Sequence record: MW679410.1
DNA: 64,000 bases
DNA from: Escherichia phage C6
Reading direction: 5' to 3' (one strand)
The notes under the pieces were generated by a model. The model was given only the letters and a program-made list of their open reading frames with translations, ran no database searches and was not told where the DNA came from. Within the stretch, counting starts at the first letter, position 1; the number at the start of each line of letters is the position of its first letter. Below, one piece after another: positions 1,908 to 62,931 of the stretch. A program made the translations under genes and the position numbers.

Positions 1908-2117
1908 TTAGCAAGACATAGAGGATGTAAACCAGAAACCTTCACCTTCTGGAATACCGTAATCATCACGGACCCATTCGTAATCATCATATTCCGGACT
2001 AGAAGCTGGAATATATTCTTCGCCACCAGCGTGGAAGTGCTGACCTGTTTCGTCAGCCACGGACTGGCCTTTACGTACTAATTCGCGGATTTGTTTTTCA
2101 ATTTCATCAATAGTCAT
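1908..2117 (-). CDS. small acidic protein, paralog 4, C-terminus ...GFWFTSSMSC
   Basis: ORF track trimmed to ATG at 2117 (SD AAGGAA); conserved junction sequence with paralog 5. Confidence 0.6.
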   Translation of the reverse strand: MTIDEIEKQIRELVRKGQSVADETGQHFHAGGEEYIPASSPEYDDYEWVRDDYGIPEGEGFWFTSSMSC

Positions 2118-2127
2118 TTTTATTTCC

Positions 2128-2325
2128 TTAGCATTCGTAAGAGGAGGACACCCAAGAGGTACCACTAATAGTAATACAACCGTTATAAAGCGTGATATGT
2201 CGTTCTAGGTCACGAACACCATCGATATAGATATCAGCTTCTTCGCGTTCTTCTTTACAAATCTGGATAACGTTTTCAATAGCTGCCGCGGCAGTACGGA
2301 TTGCACAATCTAGTTCACGAGACAT
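2128..2325 (-). CDS. small acidic protein, paralog 3, C-terminus ...SWVSSSYEC
   Basis: ORF track; SD AAGGAA overlapping stop of paralog 2. Confidence 0.6.
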   Translation of the reverse strand: MSRELDCAIRTAAAAIENVIQICKEEREEADIYIDGVRDLERHITLYNGCITISGTSWVSSSYEC

Positions 2326-2334
2326 AATAATTCC

Positions 2335-2616
2335 TTAACATTCAGAAGAAGAGGATACCCATCCACCATTTTCTAGGCTGGTAGTGTAATCATGTTGGTT
2401 TACAATAGCGTACTGAGCTTCACCGTATTCTTCCCAGTGGGCAAGGTCGGCTTTCAGGGCGCCAGGAGAATAATAGTCACCGCCCATACCGCGAGCAGGG
2501 TATATATTAAAATGAGTCTCATATTTGTTAGCAATTTCCTCAGCACGACGAATAGCTTTATGGATATCATTTACTGCTTCAGCCAGTTCTTTATTTTTAC
2601 GGTAATCATTCATCAT
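2335..2616 (-). CDS. small acidic protein, paralog 2, C-terminus ...GGWVSSSSEC
   Basis: ORF track; SD AAGGAA overlapping stop of paralog 1. Confidence 0.6.
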   Translation of the reverse strand: MMNDYRKNKELAEAVNDIHKAIRRAEEIANKYETHFNIYPARGMGGDYYSPGALKADLAHWEEYGEAQYAIVNQHDYTTSLENGGWVSSSSEC

Positions 2617-2625
2617 AGCGTTTCC

Positions 2626-2916
2626 TTAGCACATTGCTGAAGAGGAGACCCAAGCACCAACTGTAACGACGCCGTTTTCAACTTCACCGCCGTTGTTTTC
2701 AATTTCATCTTTAAACCACTGGGAGCATTCATAACCGACAGGATAATATGTACGGCCTGAACCATAATCACCGGTACCGAATTGGATACCATACTTATCG
2801 GCAATAGCTTCACATTCATGTTCGATGGTATTCACTTTACGCAACAGGTCATAGATGGCTTTTTCTGCAGATTTTTCGTCGTTGTGTTCTGGGATTTCAA
2901 TTTCAATTTTATTCAT
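2626..2916 (-). CDS. small acidic protein, paralog 1, C-terminus ...GAWVSSSAMC
   Basis: ORF track; ATG overlaps stop of upstream membrane protein gene (ATGA). Confidence 0.6.
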   Translation of the reverse strand: MNKIEIEIPEHNDEKSAEKAIYDLLRKVNTIEHECEAIADKYGIQFGTGDYGSGRTYYPVGYECSQWFKDEIENNGGEVENGVVTVGAWVSSSAMC

Positions 2917-3266
2917 GATTTACATTCCTTAATAAAGATTTCAAGGTCATTACGTTTAGTTTGATTTACATACTCATTATAATTAGCCATCTCTAAAGCA
3001 TATCTCTTACGGATGGGAGCATTCAAAGCGTTTGTATGGCAAATATCATACACAACAGGGATAAAATAAGCCACGACAGCAGGAGCGATTATCATATAGA
3101 AACCCATCTCAATAGGCATGACTCCTTCGATTGCCGCCATAACCGTGGTCATTACCAGACCAACCAGACCTCCTAGCATACCGGTGACAATTCCCATAAA
3201 TAAGGAAATAGCAATATCATATTCAGCCAATTGATAAACATGTGATGAAAGACTAGGCCGTTCCAT
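2913..3266 (-). CDS. small hydrophobic (predicted membrane) protein, 117 aa
   Basis: ORF track 2913..3440 trimmed to internal ATG at 3266 just past stop of upstream gene; long hydrophobic stretches. Confidence 0.55.
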   Translation of the reverse strand: MERPSLSSHVYQLAEYDIAISLFMGIVTGMLGGLVGLVMTTVMAAIEGVMPIEMGFYMIIAPAVVAYFIPVVYDICHTNALNAPIRKRYALEMANYNEYVNQTKRNDLEIFIKECKS

Positions 3267-3795
3267 TTTGAACCTCTTTAGCGTATTCGCGACATTCAGC
3301 AATAAAACGATTAAGCTTCCGTTGTTGTTTTCGAATCTCTGATGTATACTCATTAGCCAAAATAATAAGCTCATCTTTATCGTAATTTTTAATATCCGAA
3401 TAACTCGGGCGGCGGTCGACCATACCAAAGTGGTCACCATTTTCTAACATCAAATAGCATACTAAATGGTAATCATCGTCAGCATCAACAAGCTGTTTAC
3501 AATCACTTGGTTCATTTAAAGCGTATACTGAATAGCATAATCCAGAGAATTCCACTCGTTGAATACCCAGATTTAAGTCAATAATTTCTAAAGCTTCTGC
3601 AAAAGAAAGGTCCTCAGCTAAAGCAAAGATAAAAGGTAATTTGCTAGTGTATCCACGGCTATTTGTTCGACTTAAGAAATCATTGGAATAACCTAAGTCT
3701 TGGCGAATTCTATAAAGAACTGAATTAGTTTCATGTGAAAGACCACTATGCTTAAACCAATCAATATTTGATATCAGGTCATCATATAAACTCAT
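3253..3795 (-). CDS. hypothetical protein (180 aa)
   Basis: ORF track; SD GGAGGAGAGG upstream of ATG at 3795. Confidence 0.6.
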   Translation of the reverse strand: MSLYDDLISNIDWFKHSGLSHETNSVLYRIRQDLGYSNDFLSRTNSRGYTSKLPFIFALAEDLSFAEALEIIDLNLGIQRVEFSGLCYSVYALNEPSDCKQLVDADDDYHLVCYLMLENGDHFGMVDRRPSYSDIKNYDKDELIILANEYTSEIRKQQRKLNRFIAECREYAKEVQNGTA

Positions 3796-3818
3796 AATAT
3801 TCTCCTCTCCTCCAAATA

Positions 3819-3836
3819 GGGAGACCGAAGTCTCCC
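3819..3836 (-). terminator. GC hairpin GGGAGACUUCGGUCUCCC (UUCG loop) followed by U-rich tract on minus strand
   Basis: Inverted repeat read directly; same hairpin recurs at 5335-5350 and 41705-41722. Confidence 0.5.
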
Positions 3837-3843
3837 GGTAACA

Positions 3844-4437
3844 TTACTTAAGTGAATTAATGTAGTCGTCGATATCAGCAGAAGTCGTATCCATTCCAAC
3901 TTGTGGGCCTTTAAATGTTTCTACACGCAGCAGGGTATCTTCAATATCAATCTTAGTCAATGCAGCGATTTCAACAACATCATCGGCAGTAGCAATACCA
4001 AGGGCAGCCATATTACGAGTTTCACGGATGTACTCGAGCTTAACGGCTAGTTCCTGACGAGAGTCATCAAGTTCCTTGACCTTCAGTTTAATTTCATTAC
4101 GCATTTCGATATAATCATCGGCTTTCTTACGAAGCTGAGTAGCTGTACGACGATAAAGGAGACCGAGTTTAGCATGTACCTGGACATCAGCGCCTTCGGC
4201 AATCAGTTTACGAATTTCACGTTCTTTAGAAGCAGCGAGCTGGTCTTTTTCATTAGCCAACGCACGAATACGTTTTTCTTCATTCACAGACTTAACATGA
4301 GCAGTCTGGAGTTCAGTGATTTTATCAATCAGGGTAGAAGCAGCTTTAGTATACTGGTCTTCGATTGACAGGTTCTGAGTCATTGCGGTGCCCAGTTTAG
4401 AACGAATGAATTCAACGAGTTTCTTTAAAGTGTTCAT
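3844..4437 (-). CDS. hypothetical coiled-coil-rich protein (197 aa)
   Basis: ORF track; heptad-like charged/hydrophobic pattern. Confidence 0.6.
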
Positions 4438-4479
4438 AGTATTTCCTTCAGTTGATTAAGATTTATAATCCATGAGGAC

Positions 4480-4509
4480 ATTATACCCTGTCCTCTGAGG
4501 GTTGTAAAC
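4480..4509 (-). promoter_or_regulatory. early-type sigma70 promoter (GTTTAC -N18- TATAAT) for gene 3844..4437
   Basis: -35 GTTTAC and -10 TATAAT read on minus strand, -10 embedded in short inverted repeat. Confidence 0.45.
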
Positions 4510-4512
4510 ATT

Positions 4513-4785
4513 TTATTTCATTTTTGCTAGGCAGATTTCATTGGCTTCCCATTGAGCTTGCTTAATAATAGCTTTGGATACAGGAGCCCTTTGGCCATAA
4601 GTTTTTGACGTTGAGAGAACAATACATTTGTTTGCTTCATTATGCCAGCCCCATGATTTTTCGCCATGGGTACCTTTAACTACAGCTGACACCTCAACAG
4701 AGCAACCACCATCAGAAATCTTGGTTTCGACAATCCATTCATTTCTCTCGGCTGCTTCAAGTTCTAATCTAGTTTTTTTCTTCAT
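4513..4785 (-). CDS. hypothetical protein (90 aa)
   Basis: ORF track. Confidence 0.5.
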   Translation of the reverse strand: MKKKTRLELEAAERNEWIVETKISDGGCSVEVSAVVKGTHGEKSWGWHNEANKCIVLSTSKTYGQRAPVSKAIIKQAQWEANEICLAKMK

Positions 4786-4969
4786 ACATGGCAGCCCAAT
4801 CAGTTTTTGCCAAGTTGAAAGTAAGAGCTTTCTCTAATTCTTTGGCAGCTTTTTGTTGTTCAGGTGTTAATGAATTATACAACTCTTGCATTTCTTTATC
4901 TTCGATATTCATTATGTTCTCCTCAAATTACGGGCTCATAATATCTTAATCATGAGCCCATGTAAACTT

Positions 4970-5233
4970 TTATTTCATATTATTGAAATAATCTTCCGCA
5001 TCAAAATCGTTATCATGATAAACTTTGGTAGACGATTTGGCGTAACCTTCAGCTGAGAACATATTAATCACAACTTTAATTGTATACCACTGTCCATCTT
5101 CATTACCCATTACTGCATAGGTTTCATACACTGGGTGTTCAGGACCGATAACCTTAATATCGTTAACTGTGGCACCAAATTCTTCCGGAACGCATTTCAT
5201 AAAGAAATTAAACAATTCACCATAATTATCCAT
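4970..5233 (-). CDS. hypothetical acidic protein (87 aa)
   Basis: ORF track start is GTG; moved to ATG at 5233 preceded by AAGGAG. Confidence 0.55.
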   Translation of the reverse strand: MDNYGELFNFFMKCVPEEFGATVNDIKVIGPEHPVYETYAVMGNEDGQWYTIKVVINMFSAEGYAKSSTKVYHDNDFDAEDYFNNMK

Positions 5234-5268
5234 TTTACTCTCCTTCACTCTGTTGTTTTGATAGGTCT

Positions 5269-5297
5269 ATAGTATCATGTTTAAAGTAGGTGTAAAC
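5269..5297 (-). promoter_or_regulatory. early-type promoter GTTTAC -N17- TACTAT
   Basis: Motif read on minus strand upstream of gene 4970..5233. Confidence 0.45.
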
Positions 5298-5334
5298 AAC
5301 TTTGTGAAATTATTTTTAGTCTAAACCCCCAAAA

Positions 5335-5350
5335 AGGAGACCGAAGTCTC
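5335..5350 (-). terminator. GC hairpin GGAGACUUCGGUCUCC + U5 on minus strand
   Basis: Inverted repeat followed by TTTTT immediately downstream of stop of gene 5357..5974. Confidence 0.55.
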
Positions 5351-5356
5351 CTTTCA

Positions 5357-5974
5357 TTATTTACGGGTCTTTTCGAACTGAGCGGCGTCACCAGCAAGGC
5401 GGCGTGCTTGACGAAGTTTGTTGTCGATTTCTTCGTGCATAGGCTGGGTATACTTAAGGCCTTCAACCGTCAGATAGAGACGATAAAGGTCTGGGGTATC
5501 CAGGTTGTTAATGTGCTGTCCGTTACGAAGAGCATTGAACTCTCGAACGAGTTGTTTAGTTTCAGATTCGATTTCCGAAACCAAAGAAGCCAGTTGATTA
5601 TATTTTTTAACTATAGTGCTGGTGTCAAACTTGATTTTAGGTTTAGGAGCTTCTTTTACCGGTTCGGCTTTAGGCGTTGGTTTCGGCGCTGCAACTTTGG
5701 TCTGGGCCACAGGTTTAGCAACAGGAGCTTTAGCTGGTTTAGCAGGCTTAGTAGCGCCGCCAGCTACGATATCTTTAAAAGCTTTGGAAGCTTTGTAATA
5801 TTCTTTCTGGTTACTAGTATCAAAACCATACATATCATAAACGTTTTTAAAGAACTCAGTACTAGTTTTAGCCCCAGAAATTTTATCATAAGCGGCTTGC
5901 CACATATCTTTAGTCATGCGCACGCCGGCTTCAGTCAGAATGTTTTCGTTCAAAAATTCATTGTAAGTTTTCAT
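5357..5974 (-). CDS. capsid internal protein, IPIII-like, with N-terminal capsid targeting sequence MKTYNEFLNE and Ala/Pro/Lys-rich low-complexity linker
   Basis: N-terminus matches the T4 internal-protein targeting sequence MKTYQEFIAE as recalled; position between tRNA cluster and early genes. Confidence 0.7.
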   Translation of the reverse strand: MKTYNEFLNENILTEAGVRMTKDMWQAAYDKISGAKTSTEFFKNVYDMYGFDTSNQKEYYKASKAFKDIVAGGATKPAKPAKAPVAKPVAQTKVAAPKPTPKAEPVKEAPKPKIKFDTSTIVKKYNQLASLVSEIESETKQLVREFNALRNGQHINNLDTPDLYRLYLTVEGLKYTQPMHEEIDNKLRQARRLAGDAAQFEKTRK

Positions 5975-6002
5975 TATTGTTTCCTGTGTTAATTAACTTA
6001 TC

Positions 6003-6010
6003 TATTTATA
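6003..6010 (-). promoter_or_regulatory. late promoter TATAAATA for IPIII-like gene
   Basis: Exact TATAAATA on minus strand about 29 nt upstream of ATG 5974. Confidence 0.5.
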
Positions 6011-6017
6011 CAAAAAA

Positions 6018-6039
6018 GGCCCAACCTTTCGGAAGGGCC
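6018..6039 (-). terminator. GC-rich hairpin followed by U6 on minus strand, downstream of tRNA cluster
   Basis: GGCCCAACCTTTCGGAAGGGCC with flanking A/T runs; near-identical copy at 48161-48188. Confidence 0.5.
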
Positions 6040-6217
6040 TTTAACCTAGGGTAACCTTGTCGGGGTTCCACCTGCTAGGCAAGTGTTCAAAAATAAGGTG
6101 CGCCGTTTCAGCTGTGAGATAAGGGACTTTAAGAGGAACTCATGTACGCCTTAAAGTCGGGTCTTATTCAGGGAACTTCAGTCCGACGACTTACCGGTAG
6201 CGACCCGGTTTCTTGTT

Positions 6218-7616: not shown

Positions 7617-7997
7617 TTAACCCTCGTCTACAATTGTGTGGGTATTGGCATTAACAATTTGCCACCAGTCAAAACGATTAGACCCATATTGAGGCTTATT
7701 CTCGTTTTCTTTAATGATATCACGTAGTTCATCTTCAGTAGCAGCTTTTGCGATTAAGTCGGCATAGCCGCCACGAGGATAATAGTTATCACCTGCGAAA
7801 AGTAAAAAGTTTGTTTTGATATTATTGAACTCTTCAAGAGTAATAACCGTTCCGTTTGGTTGAACAATATCTATATAACTATATCCTAATTTCTGAGCTT
7901 CGGAAACCGCTTCAAGCAGGGTATCATGGGCCCATCCAATTTGACAATCGGGTTTTTCGGATGGATTAGCTTGGTAGTCCGCATACACTTTATACAT
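7617..7997 (-). CDS. hypothetical protein (126 aa)
   Basis: ORF track trimmed to ATG at 7997 (SD GGTGAG). Confidence 0.55.
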   Translation of the reverse strand: MYKVYADYQANPSEKPDCQIGWAHDTLLEAVSEAQKLGYSYIDIVQPNGTVITLEEFNNIKTNFLLFAGDNYYPRGGYADLIAKAATEDELRDIIKENENKPQYGSNRFDWWQIVNANTHTIVDEG

Positions 7998-7998
7998 T

Positions 7999-8184
7999 TT
8001 ACTCACCTTTAGAGATTTTATCCATAACAAAAGAGATTGAACCAATTAAAAATGCCACTACTAAAGAGATTATATTCTCGGAAGTTGAAAGCATATCGAG
8101 CATGAATCCTGCAAACATACTAAAGCCAAAAGCAGTAACGGCGGCCAGTGCAGTAACATTTCTAATTAATTCACAACGTTTCAT
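7999..8184 (-). CDS. small membrane protein (61 aa, two hydrophobic segments)
   Basis: ORF track start is TTG; ATG at 8184 preceded by GGAG. Confidence 0.5.
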   Translation of the reverse strand: MKRCELIRNVTALAAVTAFGFSMFAGFMLDMLSTSENIISLVVAFLIGSISFVMDKISKGE

Positions 8185-8220
8185 TTTATTCTCCAATCAC
8201 TCATTTGTTTTGATAGGGCT

Positions 8221-8250
8221 ATAGTACCATCACTAGAGCCCGTTGTAAAC
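8221..8250 (-). promoter_or_regulatory. early-type promoter GTTTAC -N18- TACTAT
   Basis: Motif on minus strand upstream of 7999..8184 operon. Confidence 0.45.
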
Positions 8251-8252
8251 AA

Positions 8253-8525
8253 TTATTTTAAATAAATTGCATACTTTTTATAACCAGCCGTTTCGTGACG
8301 CAGCCCTTTTTCATTAGCAAAACGTTCAATATTGTTAATTTGATTCCGGTCAAGCTCTGAAGTATCAAAAACAAAAAAATTTCGCTTATTGCCTAAAGTT
8401 ACGTGATTAGTCAAATCAATGTTATAGAGATGATTTATATCATCAATCATAGTCTTAACAGATTTGTTAATTTTTACTTCCTCATTAAGAATAGATTCAG
8501 AGATAAATTCTTGATAAGTTTTCAT
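8253..8525 (-). CDS. capsid internal protein (IPI-like) with capsid targeting sequence MKTYQEFISE
   Basis: N-terminal targeting-sequence match; located immediately before 57B as IPI is in T4 (recalled). Confidence 0.65.
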   Translation of the reverse strand: MKTYQEFISESILNEEVKINKSVKTMIDDINHLYNIDLTNHVTLGNKRNFFVFDTSELDRNQINNIERFANEKGLRHETAGYKKYAIYLK

Positions 8526-8526
8526 T

Positions 8527-8752
8527 TTATTCTACGCCAGCGGCTTTCAAAAGTTTTTTAAGATTGGCCGTGCCTTGAGCAGAAAATGTGACCTTGCCGT
8601 CTTTTTCGCCGATACTCCCGGTCAATTTAGCAAGTTTATCACTAGGGATTTTTTTAAAATCAGCCAATGTACCGTCAAAGGTTTTTGTAACAACTGGCAG
8701 TTGGTCTTCGTGTTTTTTTAGCTTCGGTAATAAATTCTTGATAAGTTTTCAT
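8527..8752 (-). pseudogene. internal-protein-like gene (CTS MKTYQEFITE) interrupted by frameshift at A7 homopolymer
   Basis: ATG at 8752 gives MKTYQEFITEAKK then premature stop; frame shifted by one nt is open to TAA at 8527. Removing one A from the 7-A run (plus-strand T7 at 8713-8719) restores a 74-aa ORF. Confidence 0.5.
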
Positions 8753-8789
8753 TTTGATTTCCGTTTGGTTAGTTTGTTTTGATAGGTCT

Positions 8790-8818
8790 ATAGTATCATG
8801 CCTATAGACCTTGTAAAC
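8790..8818 (-). promoter_or_regulatory. early-type promoter GTTTAC -N17- TACTAT
   Basis: Motif on minus strand upstream of internal-protein genes. Confidence 0.45.
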
Positions 8819-8825
8819 AACTTTT

Positions 8826-9503
<678 letters not shown>

Positions 9504-9511
<8 letters not shown>

Positions 9512-10265
9512 TTTTATTTCCTAATAATTTATCAATAGTAGTGTATAGTTCAGAAAGAGTGCCGTTATTTTCAACAACAACGTCACCAGGTAAAATTGGT
9601 AGACCCGCTTCAGTGATGTGCGAGTCTTGTACTTGACCGGTTTCAGAGCGAACCACATGAATAATCGTAGCACCCATCGCTCTGAGCGAATCAATTTCGT
9701 GTGTTTGACGAACATCAGGTACGACATAGTATTTCGCATCAGAGTATATTTTATCAAAATAGTCTAAAGCGAACAACTTAACCCAATACATCTTATCAAA
9801 TTGGTTAACAATAATATCAGTCCCAAGGGTCTGCATGAGACGACGTACTGACCAATTGTTATTTTTATTTATTACTTCAAACAGTTGGTCTTTTGTTTCT
9901 TCAGACAGATACTGGACTGGGGTAAGACCATAATGATATGCGGTACGAACATCCATTCCTGGAATAGGAAGGATATTATTCAGTTTGACAATAGCATTTT
10001 CAAAGATATCAATCACATCATATGGTTTTAAAGGAAGGATTTCTTCACGGTCGTAACCTATACCTTCAAAACAGTTAAAATCGAGTTTAGGCATATAACT
10101 ACGGTCGAATACAGGGTCATCAGAGATGTATTCATAAGCTTCAGCCAGATACTTTTTAATAGGACCTGCGAGCTGAAATTTTACCGAATCCATATTTTCG
10201 ATTACATAGTTAGCAACGGTATCCTTACCGCTACGTTTGATTCCTACAATTGATATTAGTTTCAT
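9504..10265 (-). CDS. 1: gp1 deoxynucleoside monophosphate kinase
   Basis: P-loop GIKRSGKDT near N-terminus; size and synteny. Confidence 0.9.
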
Positions 10266-56238: not shown

Positions 56239-56245
56239 CAAAAAA

Positions 56246-56263
56246 GGAGAGCGTACGCTCTCC
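56246..56263. terminator. hairpin GGAGAGCGUACGCUCUCC between convergent gene 54 and minus-strand gene
   Basis: Perfect 7-bp inverted repeat flanked by A5 and T3. Confidence 0.5.
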
Positions 56264-56271
56264 TTTAGGGG

Positions 56272-56590: not shown

Positions 56591-56620
56591 ATAGTACCAC
56601 ATCCTTGTGGTGTTGTAAAC
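56591..56620 (-). promoter_or_regulatory. early-type promoter GTTTAC -N18- TACTAT
   Basis: Motif on minus strand. Confidence 0.45.
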
Positions 56621-58743
56621 TACATTTTGAATTTATTTGGCAGAGCAGAGATATCCAAAGATGCAGCAAGGATTTCCATAGCTTCGTTGCTTTCAGAAAC
56701 GGATTCATTAACCAAGAATTGACTGAATCCATGCATCAGGCGAACTTCACCAGTTTCCATCAAATGGTCGCCATCGTAAACAGATTCGCTGAGCTCTGAA
56801 GGAGGTGTTACTGTAGCTTCCATAAGATATTTGTGAGATACCCTATCATTCATAGCAAAAGCCGCTACTTTATCAACCTTCAACAATAATCCACGCGGAA
56901 GGATAATTTCTGCTTCTTCGGCATATTCTGTAAGGTCACCAGGAGCGATAACTTTAACTGCTTCAGCACCTCGAATAACCATACCAATTTCAGCAATTCT
57001 ATCCGCAGGACCTTCAGGTGCAATTGGATTACCAAACTCGTCTTCTTCCCATTCTACCTCTTCGTCATCGACTTCACCCACATCAGATGAACTACCACTA
57101 GCCAATTTAAACAACTCATCAGCGGAGGATAAAGAACCTTCACCACCAACAAAAACGGCTTGGTTGTCGAGGGCCATATAATTTTTACCAAATTCACCAA
57201 AGATGTTAGGCTTTAATGAGGCTGACACAAAGTTCTTAAAGTAAAATGTTTTGTTATCGATATTATGACGCAGAATTTTGTATGGCAAATCCTGACCACG
57301 ATACAAAATAGTACCCTTAGGAAGTTTAATACCCTTAGTAAATGCTGAGTCTAAATCCTTAATCAATTTAATAGCCGTTGTATTGTTTTCGGATTCAGGT
57401 TTACCTAAAAGGAACAAGTTCATAGGAGCATATTCAGCTGCGCAATATTCAATAATAGCATTGCTTTCGTCTTTGGTTAGGTCCTTAGGTTTAATGAGCT
57501 CACCTGAATAAGCATATGCATCACTAATAGAATCGTTAATTAGTTTATAAACGGCTTCCATAGCGAAAGCAATTCGAGAGGCCTTTTCTGAAGGGGAGCC
57601 TTTAAAACGGGTACTCAGGTTATTAACAATTTTCTTAATAATATCCAGACTATTGGTTGTATTGATTTGCGAAAGACCGCTTAAAAGTCTATCGACTTCT
57701 GTATTAAAAAATGCCATATTATTAGAGTAAATTTCAAACCCTTGTTTATCTCTATTAGCATAATTTAGTTTAAATTTACTATCAGTCATTAAAGCGTGCG
57801 TGAGAGCAATGGTGTATCTAAAGTTGGCAAGGTCCTCGCTCTTAGATTTAAACTGAGAAGCCTGGCGCATTTTGGTAATAGCACCTTTTTTAAAGTTCTG
57901 ACTAATCTGTTCAATACCTTCATTCTCAGGGCCTTCAGCCGTGTGAACCGGTACAGAAGCTTCAAACTCGTTATAAACCTGCAATTCTTTAGGGGACAAA
58001 GTTTCAGGCTCAGCAGTAGAATACTGCGCGGCTGCTGCCATACGACGCGAAATCTTAGTACGAGTAATGACAGCCTTATCAGTACGTTTTTCTTCAACTT
58101 GTGCAATAGATGCCGCTACGGCTTCGACCTTACTTACGGCCTGGCCGGTTTTCTTAGAAACATACACTTCGCCAACTTTAGACTCAACTTTAGTATAAAG
58201 ATCGGCATTAATTTCAGGCATACCCTTGATATCTTCAATATTAGCCCCGCGACGTACTAAAAGAACGTAGGTATGTTTTCCGCTGAATTGGAACATGTCG
58301 TCAACAACTTTAAACTTACCACCGGTACGGGCCATAGCCAAACGAGCTAATACGCGCTGAACGGTAGGGCCTTTACCTTTCATTTTCTTAGTAGGGAAAC
58401 GGAATAAAACCGCGTCCATTTTAAGTTTGTTTATTTGTTCATATATGGTATCGAAAATGGTGTTCAGTGTACCGAGTGGATCGGTACCCAAACCACCCTT
58501 GAGTTCTGCCGGAGCGCCTTTAGCAGATAAACTCATTAAGATAACATGGACGTACTTATCGCCCGCCTTAACCATCTTAATAGCGTCGCCTTCAGACGCA
58601 TAAGATACCATACGTGCTACTAAATTGTCATTACCAGGAGCATGTACCGCAAAAATCTGCGGTACGCCTGAGCCAGGTTTAAGATTTGTTACTGGGTAAT
58701 TTTTTTTATCACTTTTATCAAAAACTTCGTTTAAATTTTCCAT
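56620..58743 (-). CDS. alt: Alt-like ADP-ribosyltransferase, paralog 3 (707 aa)
   Basis: Location between gene 54 and gene 30; R-S-E-type motifs (YRGQ, FVSASL, EAEIILP) in C-terminal third; N-terminal ~235 aa shared with two upstream paralogs. Confidence 0.75.
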   Translation of the reverse strand: MENLNEVFDKSDKKNYPVTNLKPGSGVPQIFAVHAPGNDNLVARMVSYASEGDAIKMVKAGDKYVHVILMSLSAKGAPAELKGGLGTDPLGTLNTIFDTIYEQINKLKMDAVLFRFPTKKMKGKGPTVQRVLARLAMARTGGKFKVVDDMFQFSGKHTYVLLVRRGANIEDIKGMPEINADLYTKVESKVGEVYVSKKTGQAVSKVEAVAASIAQVEEKRTDKAVITRTKISRRMAAAAQYSTAEPETLSPKELQVYNEFEASVPVHTAEGPENEGIEQISQNFKKGAITKMRQASQFKSKSEDLANFRYTIALTHALMTDSKFKLNYANRDKQGFEIYSNNMAFFNTEVDRLLSGLSQINTTNSLDIIKKIVNNLSTRFKGSPSEKASRIAFAMEAVYKLINDSISDAYAYSGELIKPKDLTKDESNAIIEYCAAEYAPMNLFLLGKPESENNTTAIKLIKDLDSAFTKGIKLPKGTILYRGQDLPYKILRHNIDNKTFYFKNFVSASLKPNIFGEFGKNYMALDNQAVFVGGEGSLSSADELFKLASGSSSDVGEVDDEEVEWEEDEFGNPIAPEGPADRIAEIGMVIRGAEAVKVIAPGDLTEYAEEAEIILPRGLLLKVDKVAAFAMNDRVSHKYLMEATVTPPSELSESVYDGDHLMETGEVRLMHGFSQFLVNESVSESNEAMEILAASLDISALPNKFKM

Positions 58744-58746
58744 TAT

Positions 58747-60792
58747 TTACCCTTGGGTGAATTTTTCTGGGATTTCGTCAAAATTAATACATGAAGCCAA
58801 AAGAGGCATTATATCCACCTTGGTCGATTTGACAAATGAATCAAAAGACACAGGGTTGTCGGTCTCTGTTTCTACGCCTTGGTAAACAACCAATTCGCCG
58901 GTTTCCATCAATGCATCACCATCATAGATAACCGCATTTTCTGCTAGTTGGTCTGTGGTCTGGATATCAGCTTCCAATAATTTGGTGTTGTAGTTTCCTT
59001 TATATGAGGCATCTGTAATTTTAGTAATCTTAACAGTAGTTCCACGTGGAAGAATAACCTCTTGTTCTGTTGGAGAACCTGACAATTCACCGGGCACAAT
59101 TACGTTAATAGAGTCTGCACCGGAAATTTTCCAACCGATGTTCATCATTGTATTTTCGGAACTCGTCAGCATACTTGGAAGAACAATTTCATTATCGCCT
59201 TGGAAAGATGTCCCAACGCGATAGTCCTGATGAACTGCGGCCATTGCGACGTTTGATACCCAGCCGCCAAAGATAATCGGCTTAAGGGACGTTGATACAT
59301 AGTTCCTGAAATAAAACAATTTTGAGTGTTTGATTTTATCAAAAGTGTTAACATTTAAATATTGACCACGCCAAAGTGTAATATCAGGTGGCAATTTATG
59401 GCCAATTTCAAATGCCGCATCCATATCATTAATTACTTCAATTACGCGATAACTATCAATAAATTCTGCATCCTCTTCATAATAATTACCCAACAAATAA
59501 TTATTAACATCGGTATAATATTGGCCGCAATAAGAAGAAATAGCCTCACGCTGCTCATACTCAAATCGATTATCGCTATAACTGGCTGTAAAATGCATAA
59601 CACTTTCTGACGCTTCATTAGCAAAATCGGTAACAGCAGCACTTATACGTTGAGCATACTCTTGTTCCCAAAGCTCTGCCGCATATTCGGCCGCATCCAT
59701 ATTAGGAGGAGCCTCATTCATTTTTCTTTCGATAAATGCAGCTTTGCGAAGGTTAAGAACCTCTGCACATGATTCGGCAAAAATCTGCATCTGCTTCATA
59801 CTGCCGACAGGAGCACGTTTAAGTTCACGATGCATACGGTTAAAAATTGGGTCAGAGTCTTCGACTCGAATTTCTTCTTTCCAAACACCGTTTGCTCGCA
59901 TAGCCATATCTGCCGCGCGCATACGCTCCATAGTATTCGTTTCAGAAGGTTGAATAAAAATTTCTAGTTCTTCATAATCGTCGATAAGTTCCGCTGTTGC
60001 TGGGGCACTAAATTTTGATGCCTCTGCATCAATCTCATTCCAACCTTCCGGAACTTCATCTCGAGGAGAATACTGGGCTGCGGCTACAGCACGCCTAGAA
60101 ATCTTGGTAGTAGTAATAACGGCCTTATCCGTACGTTTTTCTTCGACTGCCGCTATACTAGCAGATAGTGCTTCTATTTTGGTTACCGATTGGCCTGTTT
60201 TCTTGGATACATAAACCTCACCAACTTTAGACTCAACCTTAGTGTAAAGGTCTGCATCAATTTCAGGCATACCTTTTATGTCCTCAATATTAGCTTGTTT
60301 ACGAACCAGTAAAACGTATGTATGTTTGCCTGTAAATTGATACATATCATCGACAACTTTAAACTTGCCGCCAGTACGAGCCATCGCCAAACGTGCCAAT
60401 ACACGTTGAACAGTAGGACCCTTACCTTTCATTTTCTTGGTAGGGAACCGGAAAAGAACTGCATCCATACGAAGAGCTTTAACTTGTTCGTATACAGTAT
60501 CGAAAATGGTGTTCAGTGTACCAAGTGGGTCAGAACCTAACCCGCCTTTCAACTCGGCTGGGGTACCCTTAGCAGACAAACTCATCAAAATAACATGAAC
60601 ATATTTGTCGCCCGGCTTAACCATTTTAATAGCGTCTCCTTGAGACGCATAAGATACCATACGAGCAACCAGATTATCATTACCTGGTGCTTGGATAGAG
60701 AAAATCTGTGGAATACCGGAACCCGGTTTAAGATTTGTTACTGGATAGTTTTTAGCGGAATCACTATCAAAAACCTCATTTAAATTTTCCAT
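58747..60792 (-). CDS. alt: Alt-like ADP-ribosyltransferase, paralog 2 (681 aa)
   Basis: As above; motifs WRGQ, YVSTSL, DNEIVLP. Confidence 0.75.
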   Translation of the reverse strand: MENLNEVFDSDSAKNYPVTNLKPGSGIPQIFSIQAPGNDNLVARMVSYASQGDAIKMVKPGDKYVHVILMSLSAKGTPAELKGGLGSDPLGTLNTIFDTVYEQVKALRMDAVLFRFPTKKMKGKGPTVQRVLARLAMARTGGKFKVVDDMYQFTGKHTYVLLVRKQANIEDIKGMPEIDADLYTKVESKVGEVYVSKKTGQSVTKIEALSASIAAVEEKRTDKAVITTTKISRRAVAAAQYSPRDEVPEGWNEIDAEASKFSAPATAELIDDYEELEIFIQPSETNTMERMRAADMAMRANGVWKEEIRVEDSDPIFNRMHRELKRAPVGSMKQMQIFAESCAEVLNLRKAAFIERKMNEAPPNMDAAEYAAELWEQEYAQRISAAVTDFANEASESVMHFTASYSDNRFEYEQREAISSYCGQYYTDVNNYLLGNYYEEDAEFIDSYRVIEVINDMDAAFEIGHKLPPDITLWRGQYLNVNTFDKIKHSKLFYFRNYVSTSLKPIIFGGWVSNVAMAAVHQDYRVGTSFQGDNEIVLPSMLTSSENTMMNIGWKISGADSINVIVPGELSGSPTEQEVILPRGTTVKITKITDASYKGNYNTKLLEADIQTTDQLAENAVIYDGDALMETGELVVYQGVETETDNPVSFDSFVKSTKVDIMPLLASCINFDEIPEKFTQG

Positions 60793-60795
60793 TAT

Positions 60796-62880
60796 TTACC
60801 CTTGGATGAATTTTTCTGGGATGTCATAGAGGTCTATGCATGAAGCCAAAAGAGGCAGTACATCAAACCGTGTAGATTTAACAAATGAATCAAAAGATAC
60901 AGGGCTTTCGGAAGTATCGAAGTCATCTTGATATACGACCAACTCGCCGGTTTCCATTAGTACGTCACCATCATATACCACAGATTCTTGAAGCTCATCT
61001 GTTGTCATAACTTCAGCTTGGATGAGTTTTGTATTACTAGATGTTGTTCCATCATTATTAGAAGCATCTGTTATTTTATTAACTTTGACCATTAATCCAC
61101 GCGGTAGAATAACTTCGGCTTCAGTTGCTATTCCGAGATTTCCTGGATATACTACATTAACTTTATGAGCCCCATCAATAGCCCATCCTATTTGAACTTT
61201 AACGTAATCAGGATTTTCCTTATACGCCCTTATTTCATTAGGGTTAATAGTTATTCCTTCTTCATTTTTATCGACTGTCAATTCATTACGAACTTCCGGT
61301 TCTAAAAGACCGATACCAGCGTGTGTAACACCAAATCGTCCAAAAATGATAGGGGTTAAAGAAGTAGATACAAAATTTCTGAAATAGAACACTTTATTTT
61401 TAACTAGTGCTTCGTATATAGGAGCAGTCATACTCTGTGCACGATAAACTGTAATGCCTTCTGGTATACGGTCACCATTTTCAAAAGCAGAATCCAAATT
61501 ATTAACTGCAGATTCGATATCTTTTTCGCTCATAACCTCATAGTTCTGAGGATTATAACGTCCTAAAAGAAGATTATTTATGTCTGTATATCCTGAACCA
61601 CAATATTCTCTGATGCCGCGCTTTTGTGATGGGGTATATTTAGAGCCCTCACGAGCAATAGTAATATCGACCATAATACCACCACCCACACCAGCAAAAC
61701 TATATACACGTTTTTTAATGAACTTGGTCTTGGCGGCTTTCCACTTCGCATCGGTCAATTCATTCCAGAGGTCGTCAGGTTGGCCTTTACGAGTTTTGTT
61801 ATGCCGGGCCAGCCATTCACCTTTGTATTCTTCGAAAACGGTATTAATAGCAGAGGCATATTTTTCTAGAGCTTTAACAGATGTCAAAGGTTCGTTTTTG
61901 ATGGCCGTAAGAATTTTATCTTTAATTTTCTCTTGGATTTCACCTATACCGTGAAGAGGAAACATTTTATAATCGTAATGCAATTCTTCAGCAGTGCCTT
62001 CAGCCACTATATTAGCAACCTTATTTTTAGCCGCAGGAGAATTGTTATTAGTAACCATTTCCTGAGCCTCAGGGATTAATGGAACTGTTGCTGGTTTATT
62101 AAAATCCGCTGCAGTAGCTTCATATTTCTTAAACAATTCACTTTCATTACGATAAGATTCCAATGATTGGCTTGCTGCAATAGCACGTCGCGAAATCTTA
62201 GTCTTGGTTATAACCATTTTATCAGTGCGACGTTCTTCAACCTTAGCAATACTGCCGGCAATAGCAGTTTCTTTAGTAACCTGCACACCTTCTTTTTTGG
62301 AAATATAAACTTCACCGACATCAGAATCTACCTTAGTGTATAATTCGGAATTAATTCCTGGCATACCTTTGATATCTTCGATATCAGCTTGTTTACGAAC
62401 TACTAAGATGTAAGTATGTTTACCGGTAAATTGGTACATAGCCGGAACTACTTTAAAACGTCCACCAGTTTTCTGTGCTACCAAACGTTGGATAATCCGT
62501 TGGACAATAGGTCCTTGTCCTTTCATTTTCTTGGTAGGAAAACGGAACATCACGGCATCCATACGAAGCTTTTTAACTTGGTCATAAACCACATCAAAAA
62601 TAGTATTAATCGCATCTACGGGAGTAGGGCCAAGGCCACCCTTAAGTTCGGCCGGAGTACCTTTAGCTGAAAGGCTCATAAGGATAACGTGGGCATATTT
62701 ATCACCCATTTTAACTTGTTTAATAGCATCACCTTCAGAAGCGTAGGATACCATACGCGCGACCAATTGGGATTCAACGTCTCCAATTTTCCAAATCTGG
62801 GGTACTTTAAGTTTAGGGTTCAAGTTTACTGTAGGCAGAGTGCCTTCGGACTCAAACACTTCATTTAATTGTTCGGTCAT
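60796..62880 (-). CDS. alt: Alt-like ADP-ribosyltransferase, paralog 1 (694 aa)
   Basis: As above; motifs YRAQ, FVSTSL, EAEVILP. Confidence 0.75.
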   Translation of the reverse strand: MTEQLNEVFESEGTLPTVNLNPKLKVPQIWKIGDVESQLVARMVSYASEGDAIKQVKMGDKYAHVILMSLSAKGTPAELKGGLGPTPVDAINTIFDVVYDQVKKLRMDAVMFRFPTKKMKGQGPIVQRIIQRLVAQKTGGRFKVVPAMYQFTGKHTYILVVRKQADIEDIKGMPGINSELYTKVDSDVGEVYISKKEGVQVTKETAIAGSIAKVEERRTDKMVITKTKISRRAIAASQSLESYRNESELFKKYEATAADFNKPATVPLIPEAQEMVTNNNSPAAKNKVANIVAEGTAEELHYDYKMFPLHGIGEIQEKIKDKILTAIKNEPLTSVKALEKYASAINTVFEEYKGEWLARHNKTRKGQPDDLWNELTDAKWKAAKTKFIKKRVYSFAGVGGGIMVDITIAREGSKYTPSQKRGIREYCGSGYTDINNLLLGRYNPQNYEVMSEKDIESAVNNLDSAFENGDRIPEGITVYRAQSMTAPIYEALVKNKVFYFRNFVSTSLTPIIFGRFGVTHAGIGLLEPEVRNELTVDKNEEGITINPNEIRAYKENPDYVKVQIGWAIDGAHKVNVVYPGNLGIATEAEVILPRGLMVKVNKITDASNNDGTTSSNTKLIQAEVMTTDELQESVVYDGDVLMETGELVVYQDDFDTSESPVSFDSFVKSTRFDVLPLLASCIDLYDIPEKFIQG

Positions 62881-62917
62881 AATAATTCCTCTTTAATAAC
62901 CTTATTTATGCCAGAAA

Positions 62918-62931
62918 AGGCCCGAAGGCCT
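62918..62931 (-). terminator. hairpin AGGCCUUCGGGCCU + U-rich on minus strand
   Basis: Read directly; overlaps stop of 62931..63113. Confidence 0.5.

Follow-up and report, generated by a model that had tools for sequence, protein, structure and literature searches.

Three genes for ADP-ribosyltransferases (ARTs) of the Alt family lie back to back, on the minus strand, in a stretch of 64,000 nucleotides (nt) from Escherichia phage C6 (sequence record MW679410.1), the whole of which is referred to here as the window. Alt is a textbook example of a phage enzyme that is delivered together with the DNA to reprogramme the host: about 40 copies of T4 Alt are carried per capsid and injected with the DNA, and the enzyme modifies Arg265 of the alpha subunit of RNA polymerase. 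To our knowledge, nearly all experiments on Alt have dealt with the single T4 copy. Many relatives hold two or three intact, anciently diverged versions of Alt, and the locus described here is the alt locus of a Dhakavirus (T4-like Straboviridae coliphage). Its three genes, named altA, altB and altC, are likely to encode three functional arginine-type mono-ADP-ribosyltransferases that are produced late, incorporated into the head, shortened by the prohead protease gp21 and injected, and that probably differ in their targets. Such a locus is a natural panel for studying how Alt chooses its targets, what the N-terminal module and the propeptides do, and whether injected ARTs play a part in host range or counter-defence.

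The map of open reading frames (ORFs) agrees in strand, coordinates, lengths and spacers with the original prediction of three tandem Alt-like genes (Table 1). Each gap between genes is of 3 nt, because the TAA stop is followed by ATA and then by the ATG of the next gene. Both altA and altB end in CAAGGG-TAA, and the Shine-Dalgarno sequence AAGGG of altB and of altC lies inside the last codons of the preceding gene. The N-termini, MTEQLNEVF in altA and MENLNEVF in both altB and altC, read as had been claimed. The shared N-terminal block of about 235 amino acids (aa), said to end at KISRRA, does so in altA and altB, whereas in altC it ends at KISRRM. A run of eight T, predicted near the 5′ end of altC, is present and is the only homopolymer of that length, although it lies at 58700-58707, 3 nt from the place given. 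As deduced from the alignments and models, each protein reads as a short N-propeptide, an N module, an effector cassette made up of a helical middle and an ART domain, and a C-propeptide.

Table 1. Features of the alt locus and its borders (positions are those of the window)
Feature	Positions	Strand	Basis or remark
Late-promoter-like box CATAAATA	62903-62910	minus	T4 late-promoter resemblance
Hairpin GGCC-TTCG-GGCC and T-rich run, just after alt.1	62919-62930	minus	read from sequence
altA, 694 aa	60796-62880	minus	ORF map
altA N-propeptide, aa 1-7	62860-62880	minus	ends LNE
altA N module, aa 8-235	62176-62859	minus	
altA helical middle and ART cassette, aa 236-632	60985-62175	minus	
altA catalytic R480	61441-61443	minus	
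altA catalytic S505	61366-61368	minus	
altA catalytic E587 and E589	61114-61122	minus	
altA C-propeptide	60796-60984	minus	after LQE-632
altA/altB junction (altA C-propeptide end, CAAGGG-TAA-ATA-ATG, next N-module start)	60765-60911		
altB, 681 aa	58747-60792	minus	ORF map
altB N-propeptide, aa 1-6	60775-60792	minus	ends LNE
altB N module, aa 7-236	60085-60774	minus	
altB cassette, aa 237-618	58939-60084	minus	
altB catalytic R475	59368-59370	minus	
altB catalytic S500	59293-59295	minus	
altB catalytic E576 and E578	59059-59067	minus	
altB C-propeptide	58747-58938	minus	after LAE-618
altB/altC junction	58716-58862		second copy of the junction repeat
altC, 707 aa	56620-58743	minus	ORF map
altC N-propeptide, aa 1-6	58726-58743	minus	
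altC N module, aa 7-236	58036-58725	minus	
altC cassette, aa 237-653	56785-58035	minus	acidic insertion between STS and ExE motifs
altC catalytic R482	57298-57300	minus	
altC catalytic S507	57223-57225	minus	in S-A-S
altC catalytic E610 and E612	56908-56916	minus	
altC C-propeptide	56620-56784	minus	after LSE-653
Sigma-70/T4-early-like site TTTACA-17-TACTAT with TG, between altC stop and alt.-3	56591-56619	minus	consensus match
alt.-3 homologue, 96 aa	56272-56562	minus	conserved small gene closing the locus
Terminator-like hairpin, 10-bp stem, after alt.-3	56243-56266	minus	consensus match

Three full-length Alt homologues with intact catalytic residues

The proteins encoded by altA, altB and altC are full-length homologues of T4 Alt with intact R-S-ExE motifs. 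All three match phrog_802 (Alt-like RNA polymerase ADP-ribosyltransferase) from end to end (residues 1-707, 1-680 and 1-693; E = 1e-249 to 1e-262) and exceed the Pfam gathering threshold for PF03496 (ADPrib_exo_Tox). An alignment with T4 Alt and both RB14 proteins has conserved blocks throughout, and the predicted structure of the ART domain gives a confident fold match onto active toxins, the relatives named being the arginine-specific ART Vis, CPILE-a, Certhrax, C3bot2 and VIP2. In a profile search of the PDB, the Y-R and ExE motifs align with those of the enzyme components of binary toxins. The gene order, i.e., ligase (gene 30), alt.1, the alt array, alt.-3 and genes 54-48-29, is that of T4, RB14, QL01, SP18 and VR7 when the ORF map is set against the annotated records. 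The homology to Alt is firm because family profiles, the T4/RB14 alignment, the fold search and synteny agree. The database search thus bears out the Alt homology that had been proposed, and the R-S-E-type motifs are as had been described, no catalytic residue being missing from the alignment with T4 Alt.

The three motifs are YRAQ, FVSTSL and EAEVILP in altA; WRGQ, YVSTSL and EQEVILP in altB; and YRGQ, FVSASL and EAEIILP in altC. The arginine, the first serine of S-T/A-S and both glutamates of E-x-E are intact in each protein. Across an alignment of 122 homologues, the serine and both glutamates are invariant, and conservation of the arginine is 90% or more. In the R-S-E clade of ARTs, arginine-type enzymes are marked by ExE and not by QxE. 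The E577A mutant of T4 Alt is inactive, so a glutamate of the ExE motif is essential (PMC11404850). In T4 GT7 Alt, the glutamates of this motif are counted here as E574 and E576; since LTE-619, a published cleavage site of T4 Alt, agrees exactly with the numbering used here, a one-residue offset in that publication or its construct is likely. A second Pfam family, PF26846.1, stands in the precomputed annotation of every Alt homologue, and no mention of PF26846 was found in the searchable literature.

The intact residues bear on whether some copies might be pseudo-enzymes, or purely structural proteins of the head core, kept for capsid assembly or for DNA-packaging volume. Alt is indeed a protein of the prohead core, and alt- mutants package more DNA (PMC3012670, PMC11404850); furthermore, altC has S-A-S instead of S-T-S. 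Against this stand the catalytic arginine, serine and glutamates, intact in all three copies and invariant or nearly so over the 122 homologues, the confident fold of the ART domain onto active toxins, and a ratio of nonsynonymous to synonymous divergence (dN/dS) of 0.03-0.20 over whole genes. On the catalytic residues and the low dN/dS this explanation was rejected as highly improbable.

Comparison with known enzymes places the three proteins closest to T4 Alt. They have in common with it homology over the full length (including N module, ART and tail), the R-S-ExE residues, both gp21 motifs at aligned positions, a locus between gene 30/alt.1 and alt.-3/gene 54, and an upstream hairpin and late-promoter-like box. 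They differ in that T4 has one intact copy, whereas the window has three. Identity between T4 Alt and the window proteins is 33-49% overall (42-45% in the N module, 11-35% in the middle, 38-64% in the ART), and the cassette types of altB and altC are missing or lost in T4. The C3-like and binary toxins (Vis, CPILE-a/BECa, iota Ia, Certhrax, C3bot, VIP2) belong to PF03496, as do the window proteins, but they are secreted by bacteria, act on eukaryotic actin or Rho, and are without the Alt N module, gp21 propeptides and capsid delivery. T4 ModA and ModB are, like Alt, members of the R-S-E ART clade and come from the same phage group (PMC5512222, PMC9503650), but are small, made early and not packaged, and are without N module, helical middle and C-propeptide. 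The window proteins match Alt profiles from end to end, and not proteins of the size of Mod.

Relatives, copy number and age of the copies

The region of about 7 kb is 97.2% identical in nucleotide sequence to that of Escherichia phage fDHCT2 and 96.0-96.6% identical to those of MX01 and QL01 (genus Dhakavirus), and three Alt-like genes in the same order are already annotated in the GenBank/RefSeq records of fDHCT2, QL01 and MX01. Three-copy arrays are also annotated in WG01, AnYang and KIT01; two-copy arrays are annotated in JS10 and IME08 (alta, altb in both), SP18 (alta, altb) and RB14 (alt, alt.-2); and T2 and other Tequatroviruses have two Alt-like places each. The genes altA and altC correspond to IME08 alta and altb (96-99% identity in each module). 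The two-copy Dhakaviruses lack altB, which is thus the extra member in the window; other three-copy relatives differ from the window in having another first cassette (UGJNEcP4, KIT01) or another extra gene (WG01, type D). The 1,220 phage records with an Alt-like match contain 1,789 separate places. When copy number was compared in a spread sample of 60 records, there were one to four Alt-like places per record: one in 34, two in 23, three in 2 and four in 1, i.e., about 40% with at least two. The novelty implied by the original prediction was overstated, because several GenBank genomes already have this array annotated and phages often hold more than one alt; the tandem array itself is known and does not represent a new type of system.

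Assemblers can be misled by tandem paralogues whose junctions are repeated, and collapse or expansion of repeats could yield a false array of three copies. However, the array is present in independently sequenced genomes (94-97% nucleotide identity over 7 kb; in full in fDHCT2, QL01, MX01 and AnYang), UGJNEcP3/4 and KIT01 have it with a different first cassette, and the copies are only about 77% identical in nucleotides even in the N module. With independent genomes and divergent copies, the probability of an artefact is negligible, and this explanation was rejected.

T4 had been described as carrying a single alt. It has one intact copy, but also the frameshifted stump of a second. According to its GenBank record, alt.-1 and alt.-2 "reflect an old duplication of the first part of gene alt". 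In T4 GT7 these two (5056-5402 of the segment, downstream of alt) are the first ~116 codons of an alt.-2 paralogue of the RB14 type, split by a frameshift, with 96-98% aa identity to RB14 alt.-2; this is the type to which altC belongs. The stump implies that T4 is a decayed two-copy phage. Duplications of alt in 44RR, RB49 and T4 were mentioned by Nolan et al. 2006 (PMC1524935); this and the GenBank notes are all that the searchable literature yielded on Dhakavirus alt copies or alt.-2, Petrov 2010 being without mention of alt. The annotated starts of IME08 alta (4050-6140 of its segment) and altb (1923-4049) lie two codons and one codon upstream of the ATG of their relatives, and are probably mis-annotated.

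The copies within the window differ strongly among themselves. Their N modules are 70% (altA-altB), 66% (altA-altC) and 87% (altB-altC) identical. Beyond this block, divergence had been placed in the central region, where the middles are indeed only 10-21% identical, but it is not confined to that region: identity is 33-39% between the ART domains and 38-68% between the C-terminal tails. Even the N modules of altB and altC, despite 87% identity in amino acids, are only about 77% identical in nucleotides, their longest exact match being 26 nt. Synonymous divergence (dS) between the N modules of the window paralogues is 1.8-2.5 and saturated (about 1.8 for altB-altC), with dN/dS of 0.05-0.15, from which it follows that the paralogues are ancient. 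That altB and altC arose by a recent duplication, or still undergo gene conversion with each other, was rejected on the nucleotide identity, the dS and the short longest match. When each copy was compared with its orthologues in other Dhakaviruses, dN/dS over whole genes was that given above (0.03-0.20), which indicates strong purifying selection. The nearest relatives also differ by copy: in type, altA is closest to the Alt of RB14 and T2, the cassette of altB is that of Gaprivervirus Alt, and altC is the type of RB14 alt.-2 and IME08 altb. Judged by their divergence, the three cassettes are old, distinct lineages and not recent duplicates. With their different cassettes, the three enzymes probably have different sets of targets, i.e., they probably modify different host proteins or different sites.

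Could the additional copies be redundant, each doing the same job as T4 Alt on RNA polymerase alpha, so that more enzyme is packaged or its supply is buffered? In favour of this, the three copies agree in architecture, in catalytic motifs and in both cleavage motifs and apparently form one operon, and T4 gets by on a single Alt, which is not essential (PMC9026906). The divergence of ARTs and middles, the spread of the mature isoelectric points (pI) from 5.2 to 8.9, and the saturated dS of ancient paralogues do not fit copies kept for dosage; and, unlike dosage duplicates, each type is a separate lineage across genera under purifying selection. Redundancy is thus an unlikely explanation, and different targets are the preferred one.

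Mosaic modules and exchange of cassettes

When the proteins are compared module by module with those of other genera, identity changes along their length. Between altA and RB14 alt it is 45% in the N module, 66% in the middle, 95% in the ART and 52% in the C-propeptide; between altC and RB14 alt.-2 the corresponding values are 44%, 47%, 58% and 63%. For altB and Gaprivervirus Alt (VR7, SP18 altb), the N module is 40%, the cassette 79% and the C-propeptide 59-61% identical. Over the ART segment (about aa 400-625), altA and RB14 alt have about 92% nucleotide identity (third positions about 80%, dS 0.48), whereas in the N module, middle and C-propeptide dS is saturated, and the neighbouring gene products gp54, gp48, ligase and alt.-3 are 64%, 61%, 55% and 58% identical in amino acids to those of RB14. 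That the ART segment is far closer than the rest of altA and its neighbours indicates a fairly recent transfer of this segment between the Tequatrovirus and Dhakavirus lineages.

A similar pattern is seen among close relatives. The first copy in UGJNEcP4 and in KIT01 has an N module 98% and 94% identical, respectively, to that of altA (about 97% in nucleotides for UGJNEcP4) and a C-propeptide 95% identical, whereas between these flanks the middle is 35% and the ART 63% identical. The breakpoints are near aa 240, at the KISRR hinge, and near aa 615, at the C-terminal gp21 site. Related phages evidently swap the cassette between near-identical flanks.

If each gene is written as a combination of its N-module cluster (N), cassette cluster (V) and C-propeptide cluster (C), the array of the window and of QL01 is [N6-V3-C6] [N7-V1-C5] [N7-V6-C3], and that of UGJNEcP4 and KIT01 is [N6-V2-C6] [N7-V1-C5] [N7-V6-C3]. 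WG01 has [N4-V5-C1] [N6-V3-C6] [N7-V6-C3], IME08 [N6-V3-C6] [N7-V6-C3], SP18 [N5-V5-C2] [N1-V1-C7], VR7 [N1-V1-C7], RB14 [N2-V3-C8] [N3-V7-C4] and T4 [N2-V4-C8]. The array types thus differ by phage: [A,C], [A,B,C], [A',B,C] and [D,A,C]. A survey of 121 full-length homologues gave 36 different pairings of 18 N-module clusters with 27 cassette clusters; six of the cassette clusters were paired with at least two N clusters, and eight of the N clusters with at least two cassette clusters. No description of mosaicism of alt at the level of modules, or of cassette exchange, was found in the searchable literature, and both appear to have gone undescribed so far. The first alt copy of WG01 (631 aa; 7629-9524 of the segment examined) has a fourth cassette type, nearest to SP18 alta; it retains an ITE site but is without the otherwise invariant YDGDxLMETGE of the C-propeptide.

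Perfect stretches shared by altB and altC had been proposed as drivers of recombination. Such a stretch exists, a 25-mer at 60498-60522 and 58449-58473 (minus strand) within the 26-nt exact match, but it is short, and the dS of about 1.8 speaks against recent conversion. A repeat search showed that the two gene junctions form a direct repeat of 147 nt with 84% identity and a 27-nt exact core, spaced by 2049 nt, which is one gene unit. The junction between the two alt genes of IME08 has the identical sequence. If recombination took place at the junction or inside the N modules, the array would gain or lose one whole gene, and the junction repeat would be a more relevant substrate than the short perfect stretches.

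A wider reading of these patterns, which we put forward tentatively as less likely than not, is that the alt locus is a polymorphic array of injected effectors. The N module, linked to the capsid or to ejection, and the C-propeptide, which the protease removes, would be constant adaptors, and cassettes would be exchanged by recombination within and between genera. Each phage would thereby hold from one to three or more enzymes that differ in their targets, defence proteins possibly being among these; the N module might have an activity of its own. If this were true, the repertoire of cassettes would help to determine host takeover or host range. Systems with a conserved delivery part and an exchangeable payload at a fixed locus are known in the T-even internal proteins (IPI/II/III) and in polymorphic-toxin/MuF effectors (PMC3012670, PMC9503650), although the likeness is one of analogy only. 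The conserved part of Alt is a folded domain of about 230 aa, and not a 10-aa leader as in the internal proteins, and its exchangeable unit is internal, with conserved sequence on both sides; neither an immunity gene nor a MuF domain is present.

A special case of the injected-enzyme reading is that the cassettes have been shuffled to inactivate different host defence proteins. The cassette swaps between close relatives and the transfer of an ART between genera point to diversifying pressure on gene content, and the variable T-even internal proteins (PMC3012670) could serve as an analogue. However, no PADLOC model of defence or anti-defence was matched, and strong purifying selection acts on the sequences of each type. 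A scan of the NCBIfam library gave no matches. T4 Alt is reported to ADP-ribosylate the toxin MazF. Counter-defence is compatible with these findings but rather doubtful, and the broader proposal of three injected enzymes with probably different targets is retained.

Processing, expression and the proposed route of delivery

In T4 Alt, gp21 cleaves behind ITE-6 and LTE-619, leaving a protein of 68.2 kDa (PMC5694885), and the numbering used here reproduces both the sites and the mass. Motifs of the gp21 type ([L/I]-x-E) stand at the T4-aligned positions in all three window proteins: LNE-7 and LQE-632 in altA, LNE-6 and LAE-618 in altB, LNE-6 and LSE-653 in altC. The altB model has a low-confidence linker at residues 619-622, immediately past LAE-618, and disorder over residues 1-13. 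The N module is an alpha/beta domain of about 230 aa, with a predicted local distance difference test (pLDDT) score of 87 when modelled alone; the middle region of altB (about aa 250-403) is all-helical, with block-mean pLDDT of 85-95. The C-propeptides are of 54-63 aa and contain the invariant YDGDxLMETGE motif. The predicted mature masses of altA, altB and altC are 69.5, 68.3 and 71.2 kDa and their pI values 8.85, 5.20 and 6.32, compared with 68.2 kDa and 8.41 for T4 Alt. The proposal that the proteins are injected and have different targets is strengthened because the gp21 sites are conserved while the ART cassettes are deeply diverged.

The hairpin upstream of altA is likely to be a terminator for transcripts of the upstream genes 30 and alt.1. 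The same hairpin precedes the first alt gene in T4, RB14, QL01, IME08, WG01, UGJNEcP4 and KIT01, and in SP18 and VR7 its variant is GGGC-TTCG-GCCC. Next to it is the late-promoter-like box. Its ATAAATA core starts 29 nt ahead of the altA ATG, and the Shine-Dalgarno sequence AAGAGG comes after this core. At the equivalent position T4, RB14, SP18 and VR7 have a perfect TATAAATA, and the Dhakaviruses CATAAATA; hairpin and box before the first alt gene are thus conserved in Tequatrovirus, Gaprivervirus and Dhakavirus. There is no late-promoter box ahead of altB or altC, and sigma-70-like sites within the array are not more frequent than in shuffled sequence (15 found, 21 expected). One late transcript from upstream of altA, with translational coupling, is the likeliest arrangement.

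The proposed course of events is modelled on T4 Alt; its late co-transcription, packaging, cleavage, injection, activity and divergence of targets are steps that we infer. Late in infection altA, altB and altC would be transcribed together from a single putative late promoter upstream of altA, with translation of altB and altC coupled across the 3-nt gaps through the Shine-Dalgarno sequence in the end of the preceding gene. The proteins would be incorporated into the prohead core, where gp21 would cut after the N-terminal L-N-E and the C-terminal L-x-E, removing 6-7 and 54-63 residues. Ejected together with the DNA, the mature proteins of ~68-71 kDa would then modify host proteins by ADP-ribosylation as soon as the next infection begins. 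The array itself has probably been assembled and remodelled by homologous recombination at the KISRR hinge, at the C-terminal gp21 site and C-propeptide, and at the gene junction.

Several points weigh against this account. The difference in targets is argued from sequence divergence and charge. T4 Alt is described as promiscuous (Depping 2005, as cited in PMC9503650), so that the target sets of the three enzymes could overlap heavily. The serine motif of altC is S-A-S and not S-T-S, though the first serine is retained. As regards expression, CATAAATA differs from the canonical TATAAATA at the first base, and ATAAATA is not enriched in the window. As regards packaging, SP18 has two N modules that are only 43% identical in one genome, and a 310-aa Alt-like protein of Klebsiella phage vB_Kpn_AM_K5 consists of an ART and a C-propeptide, without N module or helical middle; to judge by these two cases, the signal for packaging may lie elsewhere than in the N module. 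Neither a paper on the Alt copies of Dhakaviruses nor proteomic data on them was found in the searchable literature. The gene for the Klebsiella phage protein (8977-9909 of the segment examined) directly follows large "hypothetical" genes without similarity to N module or ART.

The idea that N modules are homogenised within each genome or genus was dropped in view of the two SP18 modules, and also because the Gaprivervirus module N1 is 40% identical to Dhakavirus N modules although flanking genes are 64-86% identical. In an exhaustive phmmer search of 1.84 billion representative proteins, the N module occurred in only 69 clusters, always at the N-terminus, and nearly all of its carriers were of 600-712 aa; six of ten atypical matches had an ART domain in a Pfam scan. 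With so few clusters, nearly all of the size of Alt, a role as a general delivery domain fused to other types of effector is unsupported. Two distant metagenomic proteins, P0172 (1142 aa) and P0176 (541 aa), have the N module at the N-terminus and no Pfam match to an ART, P0172 having degenerate ART-like motifs by eye; possibly, these are N modules joined to other payloads. A Foldseek search with the N-module model gave nothing below E 0.019 (TM-scores 0.2-0.3), and no Pfam family of GNAT (GCN5-related N-acetyltransferase) domains was matched even at E = 10. A conserved LKGGLG loop before the helix of residues 89-107 is loosely like GNAT motif A, a weak resemblance on which the N module is not filed as a GNAT.

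The alt.-3 homologue that closes the locus is 58% identical to alt.-3 of RB14 and 86% identical to that of VR7. With the sigma-70/T4-early-like site ahead of it and the terminator-like hairpin behind it, alt.-3 may be expressed separately from the alt genes.

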